Positions 4,268 to 17,075 of a DNA stretch of 32,000 nucleotides are shown one piece after another. Source of the DNA: Candidatus Nanosynbacter sp. BB002 (GTDB lineage: Bacteria; Patescibacteriota; Saccharimonadia; Saccharimonadales; Saccharimonadaceae); assembly GCF_037013405.1 (NCBI RefSeq), contig NZ_CP146064.1:210001-242000 (forward strand), written 5' to 3'. Under the pieces are notes generated by a model that was not told where the DNA came from, made no database searches, and saw only the letters and a program-made list of their open reading frames with translations. Both the position numbers and the translations under genes were made by a program. Each line of letters opens with the position of its first letter. Within the stretch, counting starts at the first letter, position 1.

Positions 4268-4885
4268 TTGACAAAAAGTAGACCTGAGTTTGATAAAATT
4301 ACATCGTTTGACGAGTTTAATAAATACTATTGGTATCGTGAAGAACTTTCGCAGATATGCAAGTCATTAGGATTAGAATATAAAGGCACAAAACAGGAAC
4401 TCAATCACATTATTGAGCAGTACTTTAAGGGTAATTTGATTAAAAAGTCATCAATAAAAAATGAAAAGAAACGAGTAGAAACTATTACCTTAGATACTCC
4501 ATTACTTGAATGTGGGTTTTCCTTTAACGTAAAATTTAGAGAATATTTCTCCGCCGTAACAGGTATTACACCTTTTAAATTTACTGCTGATATGGCTACT
4601 GCTTGGAGAAAAGTAAAGAGAGAAAATGATTTGAGTTTTACCATTCAAGATATGCTAAAAGTTTATTATGGAGAGTCAGATTATGCCAAGTATGATAATT
4701 CGGCTTGTCAATGGAATCAATTTTTAAAGGATTTTAGTGCAGACGAAAATAGTCGCAACTATTCGAACAAATTAAAAGTAGCTTCTATTCTTTGGAAAGA
4801 AGTTAGAAATTCAAGAAATGAAAAAATTTATTCAAAGAATCTTTTGACTGAATATGCCGGTAAAATAAAAGAGTATCACAATTAG
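4268..4885 (+). CDS. SAP-domain-like hypothetical protein in an AT-rich islet
   Basis: N-terminal helix-extended-helix EELSQICKSLGLEYKGTKQELNHIIEQYF resembles a SAP motif. TTG start 9 nt after AAGGAG (4253-4258). Composition is much more AT-rich than the flanks. Confidence 0.5.
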   Translation: MTKSRPEFDKITSFDEFNKYYWYREELSQICKSLGLEYKGTKQELNHIIEQYFKGNLIKKSSIKNEKKRVETITLDTPLLECGFSFNVKFREYFSAVTGITPFKFTADMATAWRKVKRENDLSFTIQDMLKVYYGESDYAKYDNSACQWNQFLKDFSADENSRNYSNKLKVASILWKEVRNSRNEKIYSKNLLTEYAGKIKEYHN

Positions 4886-5509: not shown

Positions 5510-6238
5510 ATGATGAGACCGTTTTTACTACTGCAATCGCGCCCTGAGACTGAAGCATCAGATGATGAATATCAAGCATTTTTGAAATTTGGTGGGCTAG
5601 AGGCTGATCAATTGGTGCGGCTGAGGCTAGAACGCGGTGACAAGCCAGCGGTGAATTTGGATGATTATGCTGGGATCATCATGGGCGGCGGTCCGGCTAA
5701 TTTCGCGTATGACGAAGCACAAAAATCGCCCGAGCAGAAGCGATTTGAAAGCTATATTTTGCCGTTGATGCGTCGAATCATTGAGGTAGACGCGCCATTT
5801 TTGGGAGCTTGTTTAGGTGTTGGCGCGGTGGTGACGGCCATGGGTGGACAGATGAGCTTTGACTATCCTGAGGCGGTTGGCGCGGTAGATATTTCTGCAA
5901 CGCCTGACGGCGAGCAAGATGACTTATTTAGAGATTTTCCAGCAGTTTTCCGCGGCTTTGTCGGGCACAAAGAGGGTATAATTAACCCACCAAGCGGTTG
6001 CACGGTACTGGCTCGTTCAAACACTTGTGTGCAAATGCTGCGCGCTGGCAATAATGTTTACGCCACACAATTTCACCCTGAACTTGATGCTGATGGCCTG
6101 GCGTTGCGCATCAATATCTATAAACACGCTGGCTATTTTGCCCCCGAAGAAGCCGACTTATTGATAGCTAACGCCCAGCAGGAAGTTATCACTTGGCCAG
6201 AGTTGGTACTGCGGCGGTTTGTGGAGCGATATCATTAA
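5510..6238 (+). CDS. class I (type 1) glutamine amidotransferase-like protein
   Basis: Nucleophile-elbow context PFLGACLGVG and the His/Glu pair in YATQFHPELD. Size and order match the GATase1 (GuaA N-terminal-like) fold. Confidence 0.75.
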   Translation: MMRPFLLLQSRPETEASDDEYQAFLKFGGLEADQLVRLRLERGDKPAVNLDDYAGIIMGGGPANFAYDEAQKSPEQKRFESYILPLMRRIIEVDAPFLGACLGVGAVVTAMGGQMSFDYPEAVGAVDISATPDGEQDDLFRDFPAVFRGFVGHKEGIINPPSGCTVLARSNTCVQMLRAGNNVYATQFHPELDADGLALRINIYKHAGYFAPEEADLLIANAQQEVITWPELVLRRFVERYH

Positions 6239-6266
6239 AAAAGTAAATCTGAGATATAATAAAATC

Positions 6267-6830
6267 ATGCGTATAATTCGTAGTGTTCAAGCCACAAGGT
6301 TTCGTCATATTGGGGTATTGCTTGTGCTTTTTCTCCTTGGTATGATGGCGATGCGGTTCGCGGCTAGTTATGTGTCGTCGGTTGCCAGTGGTGCGGGGAT
6401 ATTTGATCTTAATTTTGGTAATGATGGTATTTATGTTCACGATAACCTTTTGGCGCTAGGCGACGCTGGTAGAAACGTCTATCTGTACGCTTTTCTACCC
6501 ATTGACACCATTTATGCGGCGATATATGCGGTATTTTATGTCTATACTTTGGCGTTTTTCCTGCGGTGTACTGTGCCCAATTGGTGGAACCATACTCGAT
6601 GGCTGGTATTGCTTCCTGTTCTAGGTGCTATATGTGACTGGTTAGAAAATATGTGTTTTGCTTTCATGCTTATCCAGCCTTCAACATCCGTAAATCTGTT
6701 ATTAGTAACAAGCACTTCGCTACTAACTAAAGCAAAATTTGTCTTGGTGTATTTGTCGTTATCAATTGTGTTAGGGCTAGTACTAGGCTGGTTAGTGTGT
6801 TGTGCTCGTGTCAAGCGACGCCAGGAATAG
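6267..6830 (+). CDS. multi-pass membrane protein, function unknown
   Basis: Several hydrophobic helices (IGVLLVLFLLGMMAM, IYAAIYAVFYVYTLAFFL, WLVLLPVLGAICDWL, FVLVYLSLSIVLGLVLGWLV). TATAAT at 6255-6260 is 6 nt before the ATG at 6267. The track start at 6219 overlaps the previous gene. Confidence 0.6.
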   Translation: MRIIRSVQATRFRHIGVLLVLFLLGMMAMRFAASYVSSVASGAGIFDLNFGNDGIYVHDNLLALGDAGRNVYLYAFLPIDTIYAAIYAVFYVYTLAFFLRCTVPNWWNHTRWLVLLPVLGAICDWLENMCFAFMLIQPSTSVNLLLVTSTSLLTKAKFVLVYLSLSIVLGLVLGWLVCCARVKRRQE

Positions 6831-10579: not shown

Positions 10580-12283
10580 ATGACGGACAATACACAAAAT
10601 TCAGCAAAGATGATTGATAATTCTGGCAACTTCTCTCGGAGAGGTGAGATATTTTATCATTCTGAAGCCTTATCTAAGGAACTAGTGGAGACGTTCGGTG
10701 GTCATCATATGACGCCAGCGCGTCGTTCGGCGGCAAGACTGATCATAGAGATGCCGACGGACATTGAGGGGAACGAACGGATTGATTACATCACCTCGGC
10801 ACTTGATAATAATGAAACGATAGTCAGTGAGACCCAGCGAGACGTAGTGATTGGTATCCTTGAGGATTACGAAGTCTTACAAGGTTTGTTTGAATCATAT
10901 ATTGAAGGAGTTGACGAGACGACACTGCAAGGTAAAGCATTGCGGCTGGAGGATGGTCAGCAAATCCCTGGTGACTTAGGAGAGGACAATACACAAAGTC
11001 CATGGTCTGAGAATCCGCCAATCCCGGCGCCACGTATTGATGATTTGATCAAAGCCTTTTCGACAAAAGGTGAGGGTGCTCAGGGTGTTGGGCTGGAGAC
11101 GGCGATGATCGTCGGGGCGGTAACACTCGCTAAATTAAAGACTACGCCGTATCACGACGCAGCAGTTTACAAACAGGCAGTGTTTGCAAAAAACTTTTTG
11201 ATCCCGGTATGTAGTATTGTTGGGCTTGATAATCTAGAGTCTGAGTTGAATGACGAAGTAGATATCATTACTGGGCGAAATATTGGTGATGGTATGGATG
11301 GTAGCGATTTGAGCAACGACATTGATCCATTAATTGATGAAGTCGATAGGGTTGAATCGCTACATTTTGGCCCTAAGGACTCGGTTGATCCTGAGCGATT
11401 TAATTTTGCCATGAATAATATTAATCAAATTTTTTCTAGGTTGCTTGGTAAGCCAGATTTGCGGCCAGCCGTGGAGACAACGTCACCTCACAATACGCTG
11501 TTTGAAGTTGGTACTGTGACCCTGCAAAGCGGTAGTAAGGTAGAAGCGCGAGCTCGCGGTAAGGGGCGAGGCTCGTATCTGAAAAAGTTACTAAGGCGCA
11601 TAGGATATTATGAGCCACATTCTCAGCCACTGAAGGATGAAGGAGAGCTCCATCCGATTGACCTGTACGGCATGGTGGTGATCGCTGAGGATGATACGCA
11701 GATGGCCGATGCATATGTTGAGGCAGTGGTTAATGCTTTGAATGATGAGAATATTACGCCATATCCGTCACCTGGACGAGACAATGAATGCTTTGTTATC
11801 AAGGGATCTCCAGAGTTTCAGGAAAATATTCGTAGAGCAGTTCTTGAGAGGATTCCTGATGCTGACATGGAACTGTTTAGTTTTAAAGATAGCGGTAGGG
11901 ACTTTACCGATGCAAAAATTACTGGTTTTTCTGAGACGGGTGACAAGCGAGTACCATTTGCACCATTTGAGATGCAATTCTCGACGCCAGATGCCCGTTT
12001 GGTGGCACGAACTGGTAAAAAGGCGGCGCACTTCTTCTTTAAACTGCGTAAGGTATATGGTGATTTGGTGAGTATGACTGACGAGACGGCTGATGCGATA
12101 ATCGATATTTGGCAGCGTAAGCAGGATTACTTTACGAGCCCTGAAGATGGTTCTAAGGAAGATCATCTGACGAACCAGAGCCGTGAACGAGTGGTTCACT
12201 TTAAGGAGAAGGCATTAGACAGACGCAAATCTTTGTTAAAGCGTGTTCGCGAGATGGCTAGACGAGCGCTGAATGGTATATAA
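10580..12283 (+). CDS. large hypothetical protein with a divergent RelA/SpoT-like (RSH) nucleotide pyrophosphokinase signature in residues about 320-490
   Basis: R326-x-K328-x3-S332-x3-K336 has the same spacing as GRxKxxxSIxxK. D361-LY-G364 resembles DxxGxR, E464-M-Q466-F-S-T469 resembles ExQxRT, and AAH483FFFK487 resembles AAHWxYK. Two canonical Arg residues are replaced (V366, S468). The N-terminal 300 aa are acidic with no recognised motif. Confidence 0.45.
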   Translation: MTDNTQNSAKMIDNSGNFSRRGEIFYHSEALSKELVETFGGHHMTPARRSAARLIIEMPTDIEGNERIDYITSALDNNETIVSETQRDVVIGILEDYEVLQGLFESYIEGVDETTLQGKALRLEDGQQIPGDLGEDNTQSPWSENPPIPAPRIDDLIKAFSTKGEGAQGVGLETAMIVGAVTLAKLKTTPYHDAAVYKQAVFAKNFLIPVCSIVGLDNLESELNDEVDIITGRNIGDGMDGSDLSNDIDPLIDEVDRVESLHFGPKDSVDPERFNFAMNNINQIFSRLLGKPDLRPAVETTSPHNTLFEVGTVTLQSGSKVEARARGKGRGSYLKKLLRRIGYYEPHSQPLKDEGELHPIDLYGMVVIAEDDTQMADAYVEAVVNALNDENITPYPSPGRDNECFVIKGSPEFQENIRRAVLERIPDADMELFSFKDSGRDFTDAKITGFSETGDKRVPFAPFEMQFSTPDARLVARTGKKAAHFFFKLRKVYGDLVSMTDETADAIIDIWQRKQDYFTSPEDGSKEDHLTNQSRERVVHFKEKALDRRKSLLKRVREMARRALNGI

Positions 12284-12291
12284 TTAATCAT

Positions 12292-12717
12292 ATGACAATT
12301 TACTACACTGACGGTTCTGCTTCGCCAAATCCCGGTCCGGGTGGCTTTGCAGTGATTCGTGATCTCCAGCCGTGGATCTTGGGTTCCGAGGACGGCGAGA
12401 CAACCAATATTCGCATGGAGGGCAAGGCGCTGATTGCGGCGCTTCAGGACGCGGACGGTGCGCCGTGTGTGATTTATACTGATAGTGAATTTTGGATCAA
12501 CGTGGTGACCAAGTGGGCGCCAGGCTGGGAAAAGCGCGGCTGGACAAAGAAGGGTGGCGAGATCAAAAATCTGGATATTGTCCAAGAACTGTATGAGCTA
12601 TATTCAAATTCTCAAGCGGAGCTCCGCTGGGTGCGCGGCCATGAAGGCGACGAAGGAAATGAGCTGGCGGACACTTGGGCCAACCGGGCGCGTGAAGGCG
12701 AACGATTGACTAGATAA
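12292..12717 (+). CDS. rnhA: ribonuclease HI
   Basis: YTDGSASPNPGPGGFAV, EGKALIAAL, IYTDSEF, WVRGHEGDEGNELAD give the DEDD catalytic pattern of RNase H1. TATAAT at 12279-12284 is 7 nt before the ATG and overlaps the upstream stop. Confidence 0.9.
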   Translation: MTIYYTDGSASPNPGPGGFAVIRDLQPWILGSEDGETTNIRMEGKALIAALQDADGAPCVIYTDSEFWINVVTKWAPGWEKRGWTKKGGEIKNLDIVQELYELYSNSQAELRWVRGHEGDEGNELADTWANRAREGERLTR

Positions 12718-12725
12718 CATATTCA

Positions 12726-12734
12726 TGATATAAT
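12726..12734 (+). promoter_or_regulatory. extended -10 promoter (TGaTATAAT), 6 nt upstream of the ATG at 12741
   Basis: Read directly. Confidence 0.55.
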
Positions 12735-12740
12735 ATAAAC

Positions 12741-13016
12741 ATGAGTGAATTGCATTTGCCAAAGCACGTGCAGCTGGATTTACATCCATTTTACTGTTAT
12801 CCAGATCCGGCTGATCGGTTGTACTCGCGCATTGGTGTTGTTACGCAGGTTGAATTGGGTAAAGACGCGCTATGTGTTAAGGCGGGTGTTAGTGATGATA
12901 GCACCCATGACATATTGGCAGCTCGGATTGGTCCGGGCAGAGACCAACGTATGGCGCTGCCACCTGAGATGTATAGTAAAGATGGGCTAGCGTTACGTGG
13001 TATTATCCCAACATGA
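12741..13016 (+). CDS. small hypothetical protein (91 aa)
   Basis: The ORF sits exactly 6 nt after a consensus extended -10. ATGA overlap with the next ORF. No recognisable motif. Confidence 0.5.
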   Translation: MSELHLPKHVQLDLHPFYCYPDPADRLYSRIGVVTQVELGKDALCVKAGVSDDSTHDILAARIGPGRDQRMALPPEMYSKDGLALRGIIPT

Positions 13017-13249
13017 GAGACAGACTTGAGGGAAGGGCTGAGGTCAGCAAAAAAGATATTAACCCAGAGGCCAAACTGACACATGAACAGACGACTCAGT
13101 GTTTAAAAATGGCTGCCTTGGCAATCGGTCTATTTGTAGTCAAACCACCACATGAGGTATTGAAACAGGAAGATCTCAGTAAGATCGTGGTTGATGAGAC
13201 AATGTTGACTGAAGCAGATAAACAATTTGGTCGATATATAACCTCCTAG
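13013..13249 (+). CDS. small hypothetical protein (78 aa)
   Basis: 4-nt overlap (ATGA at 13013-13016) with the preceding ORF. One short hydrophobic stretch, MAALAIGLFVV. No recognisable motif. Confidence 0.45.
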   Translation: MRDRLEGRAEVSKKDINPEAKLTHEQTTQCLKMAALAIGLFVVKPPHEVLKQEDLSKIVVDETMLTEADKQFGRYITS

Positions 13250-13270
13250 CTGGCGGCGACTGGCAAAAAT

Positions 13271-13279
13271 TGCTATACT
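13271..13279 (+). promoter_or_regulatory. extended -10 promoter (TGcTATACT), 6 nt upstream of the ATG at 13286
   Basis: Read directly. Confidence 0.55.
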
Positions 13280-13285
13280 AGGGCA

Positions 13286-14263
13286 ATGGAAGAAGTGAGG
13301 GAAACGACTGATATTTTTTTGTGGGCGAATCAAACTGACGCGAAGAAGAATGATTTACAGATAGAGCTGTTTTTGTTTAATAAAAATTACACGCCGTATG
13401 TTATGCCTCTAAAGGGCGATGTCGAGCAGCAGCTCCGGCCGCTATTTTTGTTTGATTATATCAATCAAGTTAATTTGGGGGCGGGTACCGGCCTTAGCGT
13501 GCGGGATTATGAGCTGAGCGAAGCGGAAGACAACGTACTACTGCGGACAGACCTCGCCAAGGTTGGCCGAGCGGAAACCTTGATTCATTTGATTGAACAT
13601 GAGCGCGGCGACATCGTGGAGTTTTCGGAAACTGAGCATGAGTTTAAGCGAATGAAGGGAATTGTGGCGCGATTTACCGATCCAAATGATCCAGAAAAAA
13701 TCTTTTACACAGCCAAGCTGATCCAGCAGGGGCAGACACTCAAAAGTGCACTGGCGTGGGAGTTTTCTGATGGCATGTTTGGTGCGTTTAAGGCGGAGGT
13801 TGGTTTTAAAGTGCCAGATGATAACCAGGTGCTGATCATCGGGCAGGATATTTTCGCCTTTAATCCAGGCAAGTTTGAGCGGATGTTTGGCTATGAGTAC
13901 AAGAAGCAGGTGATTGCCGATAAGAAAGTGGCGGAGATCGAAAAGGAATATAAATTGAGTTTCCCAGAGGGCTTGGATCTGAACACGCTGGTCAAGGAGC
14001 GCAAAAAGACCATCAATAAACTACAGAAATTGGAGATCGGCGAGGTCAAGCAAGAGCAGGTGCTGGACTATGCTGATGAGATGCAGCTGGAGCTAATGAG
14101 TGATGATAACGGCGCGATTATCATCATGGACGGCAATGATCTGGATATGTTTGTGAACTTGATCAATGAGGACTACATTGAGAGCAAAATTACTGGCAAA
14201 CGCTACGAAATTAAGTCGAAAAAACTGCTGGGTGAGCCTGAGGGTGAACCGCCGCGAGGTTAA
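13286..14263 (+). CDS. hypothetical 325-aa protein, possibly DUF4868 (KwaB-like); partner of the downstream helicase
   Basis: Long clean ORF with no enzymatic motif. The beta-rich N-terminal half (IELFLFNKNYTPYVMPL...LRPLFLFDYI), the central VLIIGQDIFAFNPGKFERMF and the C-terminal DMFVNLINEDYIESKITGKRYEIKSKK recall DUF4868 proteins. This is recollection only and is unverified. Confidence 0.3.
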   Translation: MEEVRETTDIFLWANQTDAKKNDLQIELFLFNKNYTPYVMPLKGDVEQQLRPLFLFDYINQVNLGAGTGLSVRDYELSEAEDNVLLRTDLAKVGRAETLIHLIEHERGDIVEFSETEHEFKRMKGIVARFTDPNDPEKIFYTAKLIQQGQTLKSALAWEFSDGMFGAFKAEVGFKVPDDNQVLIIGQDIFAFNPGKFERMFGYEYKKQVIADKKVAEIEKEYKLSFPEGLDLNTLVKERKKTINKLQKLEIGEVKQEQVLDYADEMQLELMSDDNGAIIIMDGNDLDMFVNLINEDYIESKITGKRYEIKSKKLLGEPEGEPPRG

Positions 14264-14265
14264 GT

Positions 14266-15786
14266 ATGGACCAAGAGTTGGCGCTGGCGATTTTGATGAG
14301 CGGTCGGTCGGCGCTGCTGACGGGTGCGGCTGGTACGGGCAAAACGCACCTGCTGAATACTTTTATTGCACAGGCGCGTGACCAGGGTAAAAAGGTGTCG
14401 GTAACAGCGACGACGGGCTTGGCGGCGACGCATTTGGGCGGCAATACCATTCACAGTTGGAGTGGTATTGGTGTCAGTGATCACTTGGCGAACAACTTTT
14501 TTGATCGGCTGTCAAAAACGCGACGTGAGGTAATTACTAAGACTGATGTGCTGGTGATTGACGAGATTTCCATGCTGCATGATTTTCGGCTGGACATGGT
14601 CGATCGGGTGTTGCGTGGTGTCCGGGAGAATGACCAGCCATTTGGCGGTATTCAGCTAGTGATGAGTGGTGACTTTTTCCAATTACCGCCGATCAATCGT
14701 CCGGGTGAGCAGGGCGGTGGTTTTGTGGTATATTCGGAAGCGTGGCAGGAATTGCAGCCAGCAGTGCTATATTTGGAGCGGCAATATCGGCAAAATGACG
14801 AGCAGCTCCTCGAGATTTTGACGGCACTGAGGAATGACGATATCAGACGGCATCATGCCGAGACCTTGCTAGCGCGGACGGAGGTCGAATTGCCTGATGG
14901 TGATATCACCGAACTACACACCGTCAATGTTGATGTCGACGCCATTAACAGCCAGAAGCTGGCGGAACTGGCGGGTGGGGAACGAACGTACCAGCAGACG
15001 ACGACCGGTTCAAAAGTATATGTCGAGAACTTGCAGCGGTCGGTACTGGCGCCGAGCGAACTCGTGTTGAAACTGGGTGCGTTGGTGATGGCGGTGAAAA
15101 ATTCGCCGCAGAAATTGTACGCCAATGGTAGTATCGGCACGGTGGTGGATTTTGAGCCGCTGACCGATTATCCGATTGTGGAGTTTTGTAGTGGTCAGCA
15201 AGTGACCATGGTGCCGGATGTGTGGGAGCTGCGTGACGGTGAGCGCAAGCGCGCTAGTATTTCTCAGGTGCCGCTGCGGCTGGCGTGGGCTATTACCGTG
15301 CATAAAAGCCAGGGTATGACGCTGGACGCGGCAAAAATTGACCTAAGAAAAGCGTTTGTTGAAGGTATGGGTTATGTGGCCCTCAGTCGGGTGCGAGATC
15401 TTGATAATCTGTATCTATATGGAATTAACCGCAAAGCATTGGCGGTCTCGCCTGATGCACTGGCAATTGACGAGGTGCTGCAGCGGGCAAGTAGTGAGGT
15501 GGCCAAGCATTATCGTCCAATGTTAGAGGAAATGAAGCGAAAACAGTCAGTTCCGAAAAAATCCGGTAAGAAATCTCAGTCCGGCAGCTGGCAGCAAAAA
15601 ATTGCCAAAATGCGCGAAACCTATCCCAAAGCCTACATGCCGTGGGAAAAAGCCGACGACGACATTCTCAAACAGGAGTTCTTGCAGGGCGCAACCATCC
15701 AGCAACTTAGTCAAAAACTTGGTCGCCATGAAGGCTCAATTCGCATGCGACTACAGAAGCATTTTGGGGAAGATATCGTAGCGTAA
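14266..15786 (+). CDS. Pif1/RecD-family SF1B DNA helicase with C-terminal helix-turn-helix extension
   Basis: Walker A GAAGTGKT (14323-14346), Walker B VLVIDEISML, Pif1-type motif SGDFFQLPPI, motif V/VI AITVHKSQGMTLD...YVALSRVR. The C-terminal 70 aa (PWEKADDDILKQEF..ATIQQLSQKLGRHEGSIRMRLQK) look like a small HTH. The ATG is 2 nt after the upstream stop, with a GAGG SD. Confidence 0.85.
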   Translation: MDQELALAILMSGRSALLTGAAGTGKTHLLNTFIAQARDQGKKVSVTATTGLAATHLGGNTIHSWSGIGVSDHLANNFFDRLSKTRREVITKTDVLVIDEISMLHDFRLDMVDRVLRGVRENDQPFGGIQLVMSGDFFQLPPINRPGEQGGGFVVYSEAWQELQPAVLYLERQYRQNDEQLLEILTALRNDDIRRHHAETLLARTEVELPDGDITELHTVNVDVDAINSQKLAELAGGERTYQQTTTGSKVYVENLQRSVLAPSELVLKLGALVMAVKNSPQKLYANGSIGTVVDFEPLTDYPIVEFCSGQQVTMVPDVWELRDGERKRASISQVPLRLAWAITVHKSQGMTLDAAKIDLRKAFVEGMGYVALSRVRDLDNLYLYGINRKALAVSPDALAIDEVLQRASSEVAKHYRPMLEEMKRKQSVPKKSGKKSQSGSWQQKIAKMRETYPKAYMPWEKADDDILKQEFLQGATIQQLSQKLGRHEGSIRMRLQKHFGEDIVA

Positions 15787-15812
15787 GCAGAGTATACGGT
15801 ATAATGATAGAT

Positions 15813-17075
15813 ATGACGGATGCAAAACGATCGAATCCAAGCTTTCCAAAACGATTTTTATGGGGTGCGGCTATTTCGGCGCACCAGACGGAAGGAGGCT
15901 TGAACAATCAGTGGACCGCCTGGGAACTAGAAAATGCTAAAACGTTGGCCACGCAGGCGCCATACAGTTTTGGGCGGACTGCCATGTGGTCACATGTGGA
16001 AAAAGAGGCTACCAATCCTGACAATTATGTTTCAGGCACTGGAGTTGAGCATTATTCGCGGTATGAAGAAGACTTTCAGTTGTTGGAGCAAATGGGGCTT
16101 AATTCATTTCGGTTTGGGATCGAATGGGCTCGTGTGGAGCCAGAAGAGGGTGCTTGGGATGCGTCGGTGATTGATCATTATCGCACCTATTTGAAACGGT
16201 TGAAAGAATTGGAAATCACCCCTGTAGTAACGCTGTTTCATTTTACCTTGCCAGTTTGGTTTGCCGAGAAAGGTGGCTTTGAGAGGCGAAGTAATGTAGC
16301 TTATTTTGTGCGATTTGTGGAAAAAATTCTGGATGAATTGGGCCGTGATTTGGAGTGGATTATTAGTATCAATGAGCCGCTGGTGTATGTCGGGGAAAGT
16401 TATTTTCAGGGGGCATGGCCGCCAAATCAAACCAAAAAGCTGCTTGGTTTTAAGGTGTTACTAAATCTGATACGGGCGCACAAGAAGGTTTATCAGCTGG
16501 CGTGCAAAAATCGCCGCCACAAGGTGTCGATGGCGCATAATCTATCGTACATTTATGCTGGAGATGATGCGTGGGTATCGCGGTTGAGCGCTCGAGTAAC
16601 TGACTATCTAGTCAATCAGTGGATTGTGCGGCGAGTGCGCAAACACAGTAATTTTTTGGCGATCAATTATTACTTTGCGCAACGGTTTTTTGGGTATCGA
16701 GTGCATAATTCTGAGAAGAATCCAGAGAGCGACTTAGGCTGGGATATGCAGCCAGACAAATTGTATGAGTTGCTAGTCGAGACGTACAAAAAGCACCAAT
16801 TGCCAATTTTTATCACAGAGAATGGGTTGGCTGATGCGACAGATCAACACCGTAAATGGTGGCTGATGGAAACGATTCGAGCTATGGACAGGGCACTCAA
16901 AGAAGACGTCAAGATTATCGGCTATCTGCACTGGAGTCTACTAGATAACTTTGAGTGGGATAAGGGTTATTGGCCTAAGTTTGGCCTGGCAAAGGTTGAT
17001 AGAAAAACCATGGAGCGCACGCTGCGGGCAAGTGGTAAATGGTATGGTATGGTTGTGAAGCGATTGCGATCATAG
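15813..17075 (+). CDS. glycoside hydrolase family 1 (beta-glucosidase-like)
   Basis: N-terminal signature FLWGAAISAHQTEGG, acid/base INEP, nucleophile ITENG. The track ATG at 15804 lies inside the TATAAT at 15800-15805. The ATG at 15813 is 7 nt past it. Confidence 0.9.
   Translation: MTDAKRSNPSFPKRFLWGAAISAHQTEGGLNNQWTAWELENAKTLATQAPYSFGRTAMWSHVEKEATNPDNYVSGTGVEHYSRYEEDFQLLEQMGLNSFRFGIEWARVEPEEGAWDASVIDHYRTYLKRLKELEITPVVTLFHFTLPVWFAEKGGFERRSNVAYFVRFVEKILDELGRDLEWIISINEPLVYVGESYFQGAWPPNQTKKLLGFKVLLNLIRAHKKVYQLACKNRRHKVSMAHNLSYIYAGDDAWVSRLSARVTDYLVNQWIVRRVRKHSNFLAINYYFAQRFFGYRVHNSEKNPESDLGWDMQPDKLYELLVETYKKHQLPIFITENGLADATDQHRKWWLMETIRAMDRALKEDVKIIGYLHWSLLDNFEWDKGYWPKFGLAKVDRKTMERTLRASGKWYGMVVKRLRS

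Follow-up and report, generated by a model that had tools for sequence, protein, structure and literature searches.

An orphan KwaB-family protein and a Pif1-type helicase share a conserved chromosomal DNA-maintenance neighbourhood in Saccharibacteria

Kiwa ranks among the commonest defence systems of bacteria. So far, KwaB, the Kiwa effector, has been analysed only in company with KwaA. Escherichia coli KwaB forms a dimer, binds single- and double-stranded DNA without sequence specificity via its DUF4868 domain, stalls phage replication forks and is retained at the membrane by KwaA (Kiwa preprint). About 54% of Kiwa systems co-localise with mobile genetic elements (Kiwa preprint), and the Kiwa study took in only loci having both KwaA and KwaB. 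Here, we analysed a 32-kb stretch of the chromosome of Candidatus Nanosynbacter sp. BB002 (contig NZ_CP146064.1; hereafter the window), from the oral Nanosynbacter-related group of Saccharibacteria (TM7), in which the gene for a 325-residue KwaB-like protein is followed directly by that for a 506-residue Pif1-family helicase. The closest genome match shows 99% protein identity, and the complete genomes of relatives measure 0.70–0.86 Mb. We find that the two genes are vertically inherited and chromosomal, lie in a DNA-maintenance neighbourhood, and constitute neither a Kiwa system nor a mobile defence cassette.

The nearest described pair comes from Southlakia epibionticum ML1, where orthologous Pif1 helicase and DUF4868 genes (SEML1_0264/SEML1_0265) occupy the same interval between RNase HI and GH1 (PMC10633639). 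The order there is inverted, the helicase gene preceding the DUF4868 gene by 100 nucleotides (nt), unlike the 2 nt of the window, and transposon sequencing (Tn-seq) data exist for both. The DUF4868 label has already been given by NCBI and by Wang et al. 2023 (PMC10633639), so that the resemblance as such was known before. Searches of full-text literature returned no paper describing a vertically inherited, widespread orphan KwaB branch in Saccharibacteria, and no description of an orphan coexisting with a true Kiwa system, of phage relatives or of a lineage-specific Pif1 fusion.

The original prediction, made from the letters of the DNA, had proposed a KwaB/DUF4868 resemblance for the upstream protein, and profile and structure searches uphold it. 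The Pfam KwaB model PF16162 matched residues 153–303 at 34.8 bits, above its gathering cutoff of 26.3, and the PADLOC KwaB model PDLC00233 (E 9e-12) aligned residues 18–313 with its 320 positions from end to end, the best of seven PADLOC KwaB models matched at E ≤ 0.0063. The NCBIfam KwaB equivalog NF041623 scored 42.3 bits against a 200-bit cutoff, and the equivalog level is not reached. A phmmer search of the PDB sequences with the single 325-residue sequence gave zero matches, while a family profile reached the KwaB chains of known structure (E 1e-10). We used AlphaFold2 (AF2) to model the protein (predicted local distance difference test, pLDDT, 88.8), and in a Foldseek comparison with the PDB only KwaB structures were significant (E 5e-13 to 1e-11, probability 1.00, about 330 columns aligned). 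The model is 13–15% identical to the PDB KwaB chains with a global TM-score of 0.46–0.50, which indicates that the domain arrangement differs. It comprises an N-terminal α/β domain, a DUF4868 DNA-binding domain (approximately residues 153–303) and a disordered, conserved tail, EPEGEPPRG. The two sequence blocks on which the proposed resemblance had drawn, IIGQDIFAFNPGKFERMF and NLINEDYIESKITGKRYEIKSKK, are residues 184–201 and 291–313. Thus, the 325-residue protein is a divergent, full-length KwaB/DUF4868 homologue in which both domains are kept.

Comparison with the KwaB of E. coli Kiwa (PDB 9mtn, 9nyu, 9mrx, 9o0i; PF16162) reveals full-length homology, a common two-domain architecture and some shared basic DNA-contact positions. 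Lys175, Lys196 and Lys245 are conserved as K/R and align with basic residues through which the E. coli protein contacts DNA, where R167, K187 and R233 align with conserved K/R in the orphan family. By this analogy the KwaB-like protein may bind DNA. Beyond the low identity and TM-score and the score below the equivalog cutoff, the window protein differs in having no KwaA partner, in lying off mobile elements, in its vertical inheritance and slow evolution, and in its acidic/proline tail.

The missing KwaA partner had also been foreseen. PADLOC, by which KwaA was judged since the Pfam copy used held no KwaA model, finds none within the window. We considered the only four-transmembrane (TM) ORF (open reading frame) of the window (6219–6830) as a cryptic KwaA and rejected it, as it has no PADLOC or Pfam match; a genuine Saccharibacterial KwaA served as positive control in the same search and scored E 1e-28. 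No KwaA-like ORF lies in the flanks of about 130 related loci, except in one genome. The soil Saccharibacterium L088/L091 encodes a canonical, overlapping KwaA and KwaB (3265–4744 in L088/L091) directly after ProRS, and an orthologue of the orphan (L091, 10001–11080) lies about 5 kb downstream of this Kiwa pair. The orthologue is 44% identical to the window protein and the KwaA-linked KwaB (P0147) 31%. Since the orthologue coexists with a true KwaA and KwaB in one genome, the orphan is a distinct paralogue and not an unannotated Kiwa. P0147 belongs to the same subfamily as the window protein, with an N-terminal DIFLWAN motif and PDLC00233 as best PADLOC model, and sits in the same chromosomal block; unlike the window gene, it is preceded by an overlapping KwaA gene (PADLOC E 1e-28), and the orphan stands in a separate context. 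The variable stretch that holds the soil Kiwa pair also has a Zeta-toxin-like gene.

KwaB-like relatives are encoded in at least 523 GTDB species-representative genomes, of which the best 80 are all Saccharibacteria with one locus per genome. A phmmer search of 1.84 billion cluster representatives gave 201 matches at E ≤ 1e-3, and the subfamily is therefore narrow. Every chromosomal locus examined shows a constant block, running XseAB, two-component pair, RecO, ProRS, then RNase HI/KwaB-like/Pif1, then (GH1), MraZ, RsmH and the dcw cluster, and this synteny spans oral Nanosynbacter to deep soil clades. The KwaB-like gene thus has XseAB, RecO, RNase HI and Pif1 as DNA-metabolism neighbours, and RNase HI adjoins or separates the KwaB-like and Pif1 genes in most of the Saccharibacteria loci examined. 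We saw no mobile-element context in these loci, and the fixed position in all of them is not the patchy, mobile distribution of the Kiwa type. Such a fixed syntenic position across Saccharibacteria is largely that of conserved core genes of the lineage, the pattern that the original prediction had named as speaking against an accessory system.

We next consider how closely the two genes are tied. Both ORFs are real genes with 2 nt between them, and in this genome they form one tightly coupled unit, as had been predicted. At the junction (...CGAGGT TAA GT ATG...) the KwaB-like stop codon occupies 14261–14263, the helicase ATG starts at 14266 and GAGG stands 6 nt 5' of this ATG, an arrangement that by its sequence is one of translational coupling. 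The junction recurs, as CGAGGTTAAGTATG or CGRGGCTAAAATG, across some 80 species of relatives. Coupling at 2–4 nt is found in 79 of the 80 closest species and in L097, and the spacing is about 160 nt in L087. Elsewhere the adjacency loosens: a PDH-like gene separates KwaB-like and Pif1 genes in L096 (88% identity), and the two lie 2.6 kb apart in L006 and 4.2 kb in L004 (75% identity), and 9.2 kb in L091. Among 21 informative deep-clade loci, Pif1 is downstream on the same strand at 0.09–9.4 kb in 18; it is missing within 10 kb in L099, L121 and L122. The deep-clade order of KwaB-like (K), RNase HI (RNH) and Pif1 (P) genes is shuffled (K-RNH-P, RNH-K-P or RNH-P-K), with RNase HI often between or beside the other two, and across all loci 0–6 genes intervene and the spacing runs from 2 nt to 9.4 kb. 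Thus, tight coupling to Pif1 is confined to the Nanosynbacter-type lineage. The trio with RNase HI is a persistent neighbourhood of shuffling order, and its operon fusion is a derived compaction. Of the gene-neighbourhood link that had been proposed for the pair, the coupling stands within this lineage; the adjacency is lost elsewhere and is not found with the phage relatives described below.

The downstream gene fares much as predicted. The Pfam PIF1 model PF05970 matched at 132.7 bits (cutoff 25.9, E 2e-38), and all the motifs that had been quoted were located, along with the Pif1 signature: Walker A GAAGTGKT (residues 20–27), Walker B VLVIDEISM (95–103), VHKSQG (345–350) and the signature DMVDRVLRGVRENDQPFGGIQLVMSGDFFQLPPI through SGDFFQLPPI (110–143). 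Solved Pif1 cores match residues 2–409 at E 1e-67 to 1e-40; the best are all Pif1 proteins, in the order yeast (1e-67), human (1e-62), then Bacteroides and Thermus. The 2B/SH3-like insertion domain model PF21530 scored 22.1 bits, just below its cutoff of 23.9, and ECOD gives SH3 for the Southlakia helicase orthologue (Wang et al. 2023, Table S2, PMC10633639). We conclude that the 506-residue protein is a Pif1-family helicase of superfamily 1B (SF1B) with an extra C-terminal three-helix module, and its family membership predicts ATP-dependent 5'-3' unwinding. It has all SF1B motifs and the signature in common with the solved Pif1 helicases (Saccharomyces cerevisiae 5o6b, human 6hpt, BaPif1 5fhd/5ftb, Thermus oshimai 6s3e), and relative to these it adds a C-terminal helix-turn-helix (HTH)-like domain on a basic linker.

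The C-terminal module is joined to the helicase core by a basic, low-complexity linker. The full-length AF2 model was poor (pLDDT 55), with a low-confidence core, and was kept out of the fold search; we used only the confident C-terminal helices (residues 462–473, 478–485 and 489–500, pLDDT about 90). The HTH assignment in the original prediction is upheld as far as the three helices go, and ECOD classes the C-terminus of the Southlakia orthologue as 'tri-helical' (Wang et al. 2023, Table S2, PMC10633639); its identity as an HTH has sub-threshold Sigma70_r4 and HTH_23 matches (E about 0.01). Most Saccharibacteria orthologues have the module. A large subclade of Nanosynbacter (L001–L003, L050–L084) has lost by deletion the region equivalent to 15517–15786, the linker and three-helix module, which leaves proteins of 416–436 residues, with the KwaB-like partner and the coupled junction intact.

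The KwaB-like gene is under strong purifying selection, its ratio of nonsynonymous to synonymous substitutions (dN/dS) being 0.016–0.05 against several species, equal to or lower than those of MraY, PBP and RsmH. We used dN/dS in place of raw amino-acid identity, which is 93–98% where RsmH is at 72–75%; we rejected extreme constraint as the reading of these identities, because synonymous divergence (dS) and pairwise matrices show that they partly reflect recombination history. Against group-B species, the dS of RNase HI, KwaB-like and Pif1 genes is approximately 0.5–0.7, while flanking genes range from 1.2 to saturation. In comparisons of 12285–15785 with L011, L021, L026 and L048, the KwaB-like–Pif1 cassette shows 89–90% nucleotide identity and its flanks 67–77%, and the segment from promoter to Pif1 stop is one higher-identity unit in several species comparisons. 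The gene trees conflict, with ((A,B),C) for the block and (A,(B,C)) for MraZ and RsmH. The low dS of the block and the conflicting trees point to inter-species homologous exchange, and these sequence patterns indicate homologous recombination of the block between species in naturally competent bacteria.

The nearest non-chromosomal relatives (25–42% identity) lie on phage contigs, in early replication/recombination regions. In four of four contexts the neighbours were drawn from RecT, SSB, VRR-NUC, a DnaD-like organiser and a PDDEXK-FtsK fusion, MazG also occurs in such regions, and no Pif1 gene was found beside the phage-borne genes in the contexts examined. These DUF4868 proteins, such as P0129, P0138, P0141 and P0193 of metagenomic Caudoviricetes, are KwaA-less and similar in length to the window protein, and they interleave with Saccharibacteria proteins in a rough neighbour-joining tree. 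They were found only in metagenomic contigs: tblastn against 50,697 GenBank phage records gave zero matches, and PHROGs holds no family for the window protein or for a phage relative. A 2026 survey reported KwaB-only matches in oral phage genomes, some with Saccharibacteria hosts assigned.

We made several further observations on these relatives. In L093 (4686–7963) and L094 (5761–10516) one small ORF separates the KwaB-like gene from a fusion of about 700 residues between a PD-(D/E)xK nuclease and an FtsK translocase, and in L094 the KwaB-like gene directly follows RecT, in what looks like a recombination module. The KwaA-less proteins P0129, P0130, P0134, P0141, P0143 and P0193 (L090, L094, L095) end in tails such as QLNMGV, QLNTGL, QLNMNI, QTRIGVM or QTRMDVR. 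These tails resemble a C-terminal β-clamp-binding hexapeptide, which in Pol IV is QLVLGL; several phage DUF4868 proteins have QLNMGV- or QTRIGVM-type tails, and the window protein, ending EPEGEPPRG, has none. A Foldseek match in BFVD (A0A8S5QWK1, Siphoviridae sp. ctQNW6, E 7e-39) is a 217-residue fragment with 91% identity to the window protein, which stems either from a contig of Saccharibacteria with a wrong phage label or from a near-identical copy carried by a phage.

Our preferred reading, which we hold tentatively and at somewhat less than an even chance, is that the KwaB-like protein is a KwaA-independent DNA binder, conserved but dispensable, that acts, like RNase HI and Pif1, on intermediates of replication or recombination. 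A role on DNA intermediates is favoured by the fixed position and the strong purifying selection, by neighbours that serve DNA maintenance and by relatives in phage recombination modules. In the proposed mechanism, an orphan paralogue of the Kiwa effector, with both domains and no membrane sensor KwaA, would work alongside the lineage's Pif1-type 5'-3' helicase with its extra three-helix, DNA-binding-like domain. With RNase HI, both genes belong to a neighbourhood that is conserved throughout the class, bounded by RecO/ProRS and the dcw cluster, and the loss of intervening genes in the Nanosynbacter-type lineage would have left one leaderless, translationally coupled transcript. By analogy with E. 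coli KwaB, the protein would be a free cytosolic, dimeric, sequence-unspecific DNA binder. Its targets may be stalled forks, DNA ends or RNA–DNA hybrid regions, on which RNase HI and Pif1 also act, and it might cooperate with either enzyme.

Several points weigh against this reading. The evidence is of homology, fold, synteny and selection, and function is suggested by analogy. The mapping of residues onto E. coli KwaB is unreliable at 13–15% identity, and its R142, N134 and D169 have no conserved counterpart in the orphan family. Pif1 is not within 10 kb in three deep-clade loci. With synteny extending over the entire block, mere neighbourhood is no proof of a functional link, and Pif1 and RNase HI could lie close by simple inheritance of that order. 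Some of the very high identity between species stems from recombination and not from constraint, and the phage context is ambiguous, early regions also housing anti-defence and exclusion genes. In Southlakia Tn-seq, a co-culture without phage challenge, both orthologues were non-essential at every time point with flat insertion counts, and RNase HI gave a late growth defect (Wang et al. 2023, PMC10633639); the non-essentiality is as compatible with a role in defence or stress as with one in maintenance.

A defence function would make of the same genes a KwaA-independent, constitutive or differently triggered anti-phage or anti-plasmid module, in which the KwaB-like protein blocks the replication of invading DNA and HTH-targeted Pif1 is a co-effector, or a safeguard that strips the KwaB-like protein off host DNA. 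The only characterised KwaB-like relatives are defence effectors, the PADLOC candidate systems include RecD/Pif1-like helicases and orphan KwaB matches are reported in oral phages. The operon is tight in at least 80 species, the two genes adjoin each other in either order (KwaB-like first in the window, helicase first in Southlakia) and are dispensable in phage-free co-culture, and the cassette shows signs of exchange between species as one unit. We nevertheless consider such a module unlikely. The genes keep a fixed position through class-wide vertical inheritance, with no mobile-element context in the loci examined, and the dN/dS of 0.016–0.05 is unlike that of arms-race genes. The adjacency is lost in other lineages and the phage relatives are without Pif1. 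A score of 42 bits is far from the 200-bit NCBIfam equivalog cutoff, and the presence of a complete Kiwa and the orphan in one genome argues for differing roles. The discrete, accessory, defence-like two-gene system of the original prediction is not supported, given the fixed synteny, purifying selection and variable adjacency. At the other extreme, the two genes might each be conserved without any functional tie and have been brought together merely by genome reduction. The KwaB-like protein would then have a role apart from Pif1 or RNase HI, for instance as a DNA binder associated with the nucleoid or with competence, or be the product of a phage gene that was domesticated. The range of 0–6 intervening genes over 2 nt to 9.4 kb agrees with this, as does a RecO-to-dcw block so wholly syntenic that proximity is expected without selection. 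So do the differing rates at depth (in L091, 44% identity for the KwaB-like protein and 64% for Pif1) and the loss of the Pif1 C-terminal domain in one subclade with the partner visibly unchanged. Yet across deep divergence, and although their order is shuffled, the genes have stayed near each other in one orientation, at least 80 species retain the coupled junction, and promoter to Pif1 stop behaves as a single unit of higher identity in several comparisons. We consider a purely accidental association unlikely, on a par with the defence module.

The locus bears on whether defence effectors and housekeeping factors of DNA maintenance swap roles. The KwaA-less branch is fixed, slow-evolving and syntenic across a whole class of ultra-small episymbionts, and it turns up again in recombination modules of phages. 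As Southlakia and Nanosynbacter can be transformed, this is a genetically tractable case for the function of the KwaB fold without a membrane sensor. One bold extension, which we regard as quite unlikely, is that the fold is not primarily a defence fold. The KwaA-less Saccharibacteria and phage branch would then be a conserved replication/recombination accessory factor that works with RNase HI and Pif1 (it could, for instance, hold or protect forks, ends or transforming DNA on its way in) and Kiwa its membrane-tethered exaptation, or, in reverse, a defence or phage protein would have been domesticated into core DNA metabolism. For annotation, KwaB-only matches in Saccharibacteria genomes or oral phage contigs should not count as Kiwa.

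Table 1 Features of the KwaB-like–Pif1 locus, in positions of the window.
Feature	Position	Strand	Description
RNase HI gene	12292–12717	+	PF00075 E 9e-33; third persistent member of the neighbourhood
Extended -10 element TGcTATACT	13271–13279	+	6 nt upstream of the KwaB-like ATG
KwaB-like gene	13286–14263	+	325 residues; orphan KwaB-family (DUF4868) protein
Gene junction	14256–14268	+	GAGG (Shine-Dalgarno-like) in the end of the KwaB-like gene, TAA, 2 nt, helicase ATG
Pif1-family SF1B helicase gene	14266–15786	+	506 residues; core, residues 1 to about 417
C-terminal three-helix HTH-like module of the helicase	15628–15783	+	residues about 455–506

The pair had been predicted to be driven by one leaderless promoter. 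A TGCTATAMT box is kept at equal distance from the ATG in more than 80 related loci, where the spacer bases between box and ATG vary; a generic -35/-10 scan did not list the TGcTATACT element of the window. The conserved extended -10 box therefore stands, and a leaderless or near-leaderless KwaB-like transcript starting from it is a plausible prediction. The GH1 gene downstream has the same layout, with TATAAT at 15800–15805 and an ATG at 15813, located 7 nt downstream. The start called by the ORF caller (ATG 15804) overlaps this -10 box and is probably wrong. Since GH1 has its own leaderless-type layout, the KwaB-like and Pif1 genes form a separate unit.

The interval between RNase HI and the KwaB-like gene is a variable slot, in which other lineages have a 170-residue hypothetical gene. 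In the window, a near-consensus promoter (12706–12734, TTGACT-17-TATAAT and an upstream TG) drives a pair of short ORFs that overlap (91 and 78 residues; 12741–13249) and are 28–99% identical or missing in close relatives. We considered orf91 and orf78 as small partner proteins and rejected them, as they have no family matches and no TM segments and are variable or absent in close relatives. An Rfam scan of the window found zero RNA families, and the window has no tRNAs.

Finally, two other proteins of the block may be recorded. Upstream of RNase HI, 10580–12283 encodes a 567-residue protein without a match in Pfam, NCBIfam or PADLOC, which varies widely between related species (24–99% identity) or is replaced. 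At 4268–4885 lies the gene for a 205-residue protein containing the DNA-binding domain SAP_new25 (E 8e-21), approximately 90% conserved in Nanosynbacter relatives, which is another small DNA-binding protein of a block rich in DNA metabolism.

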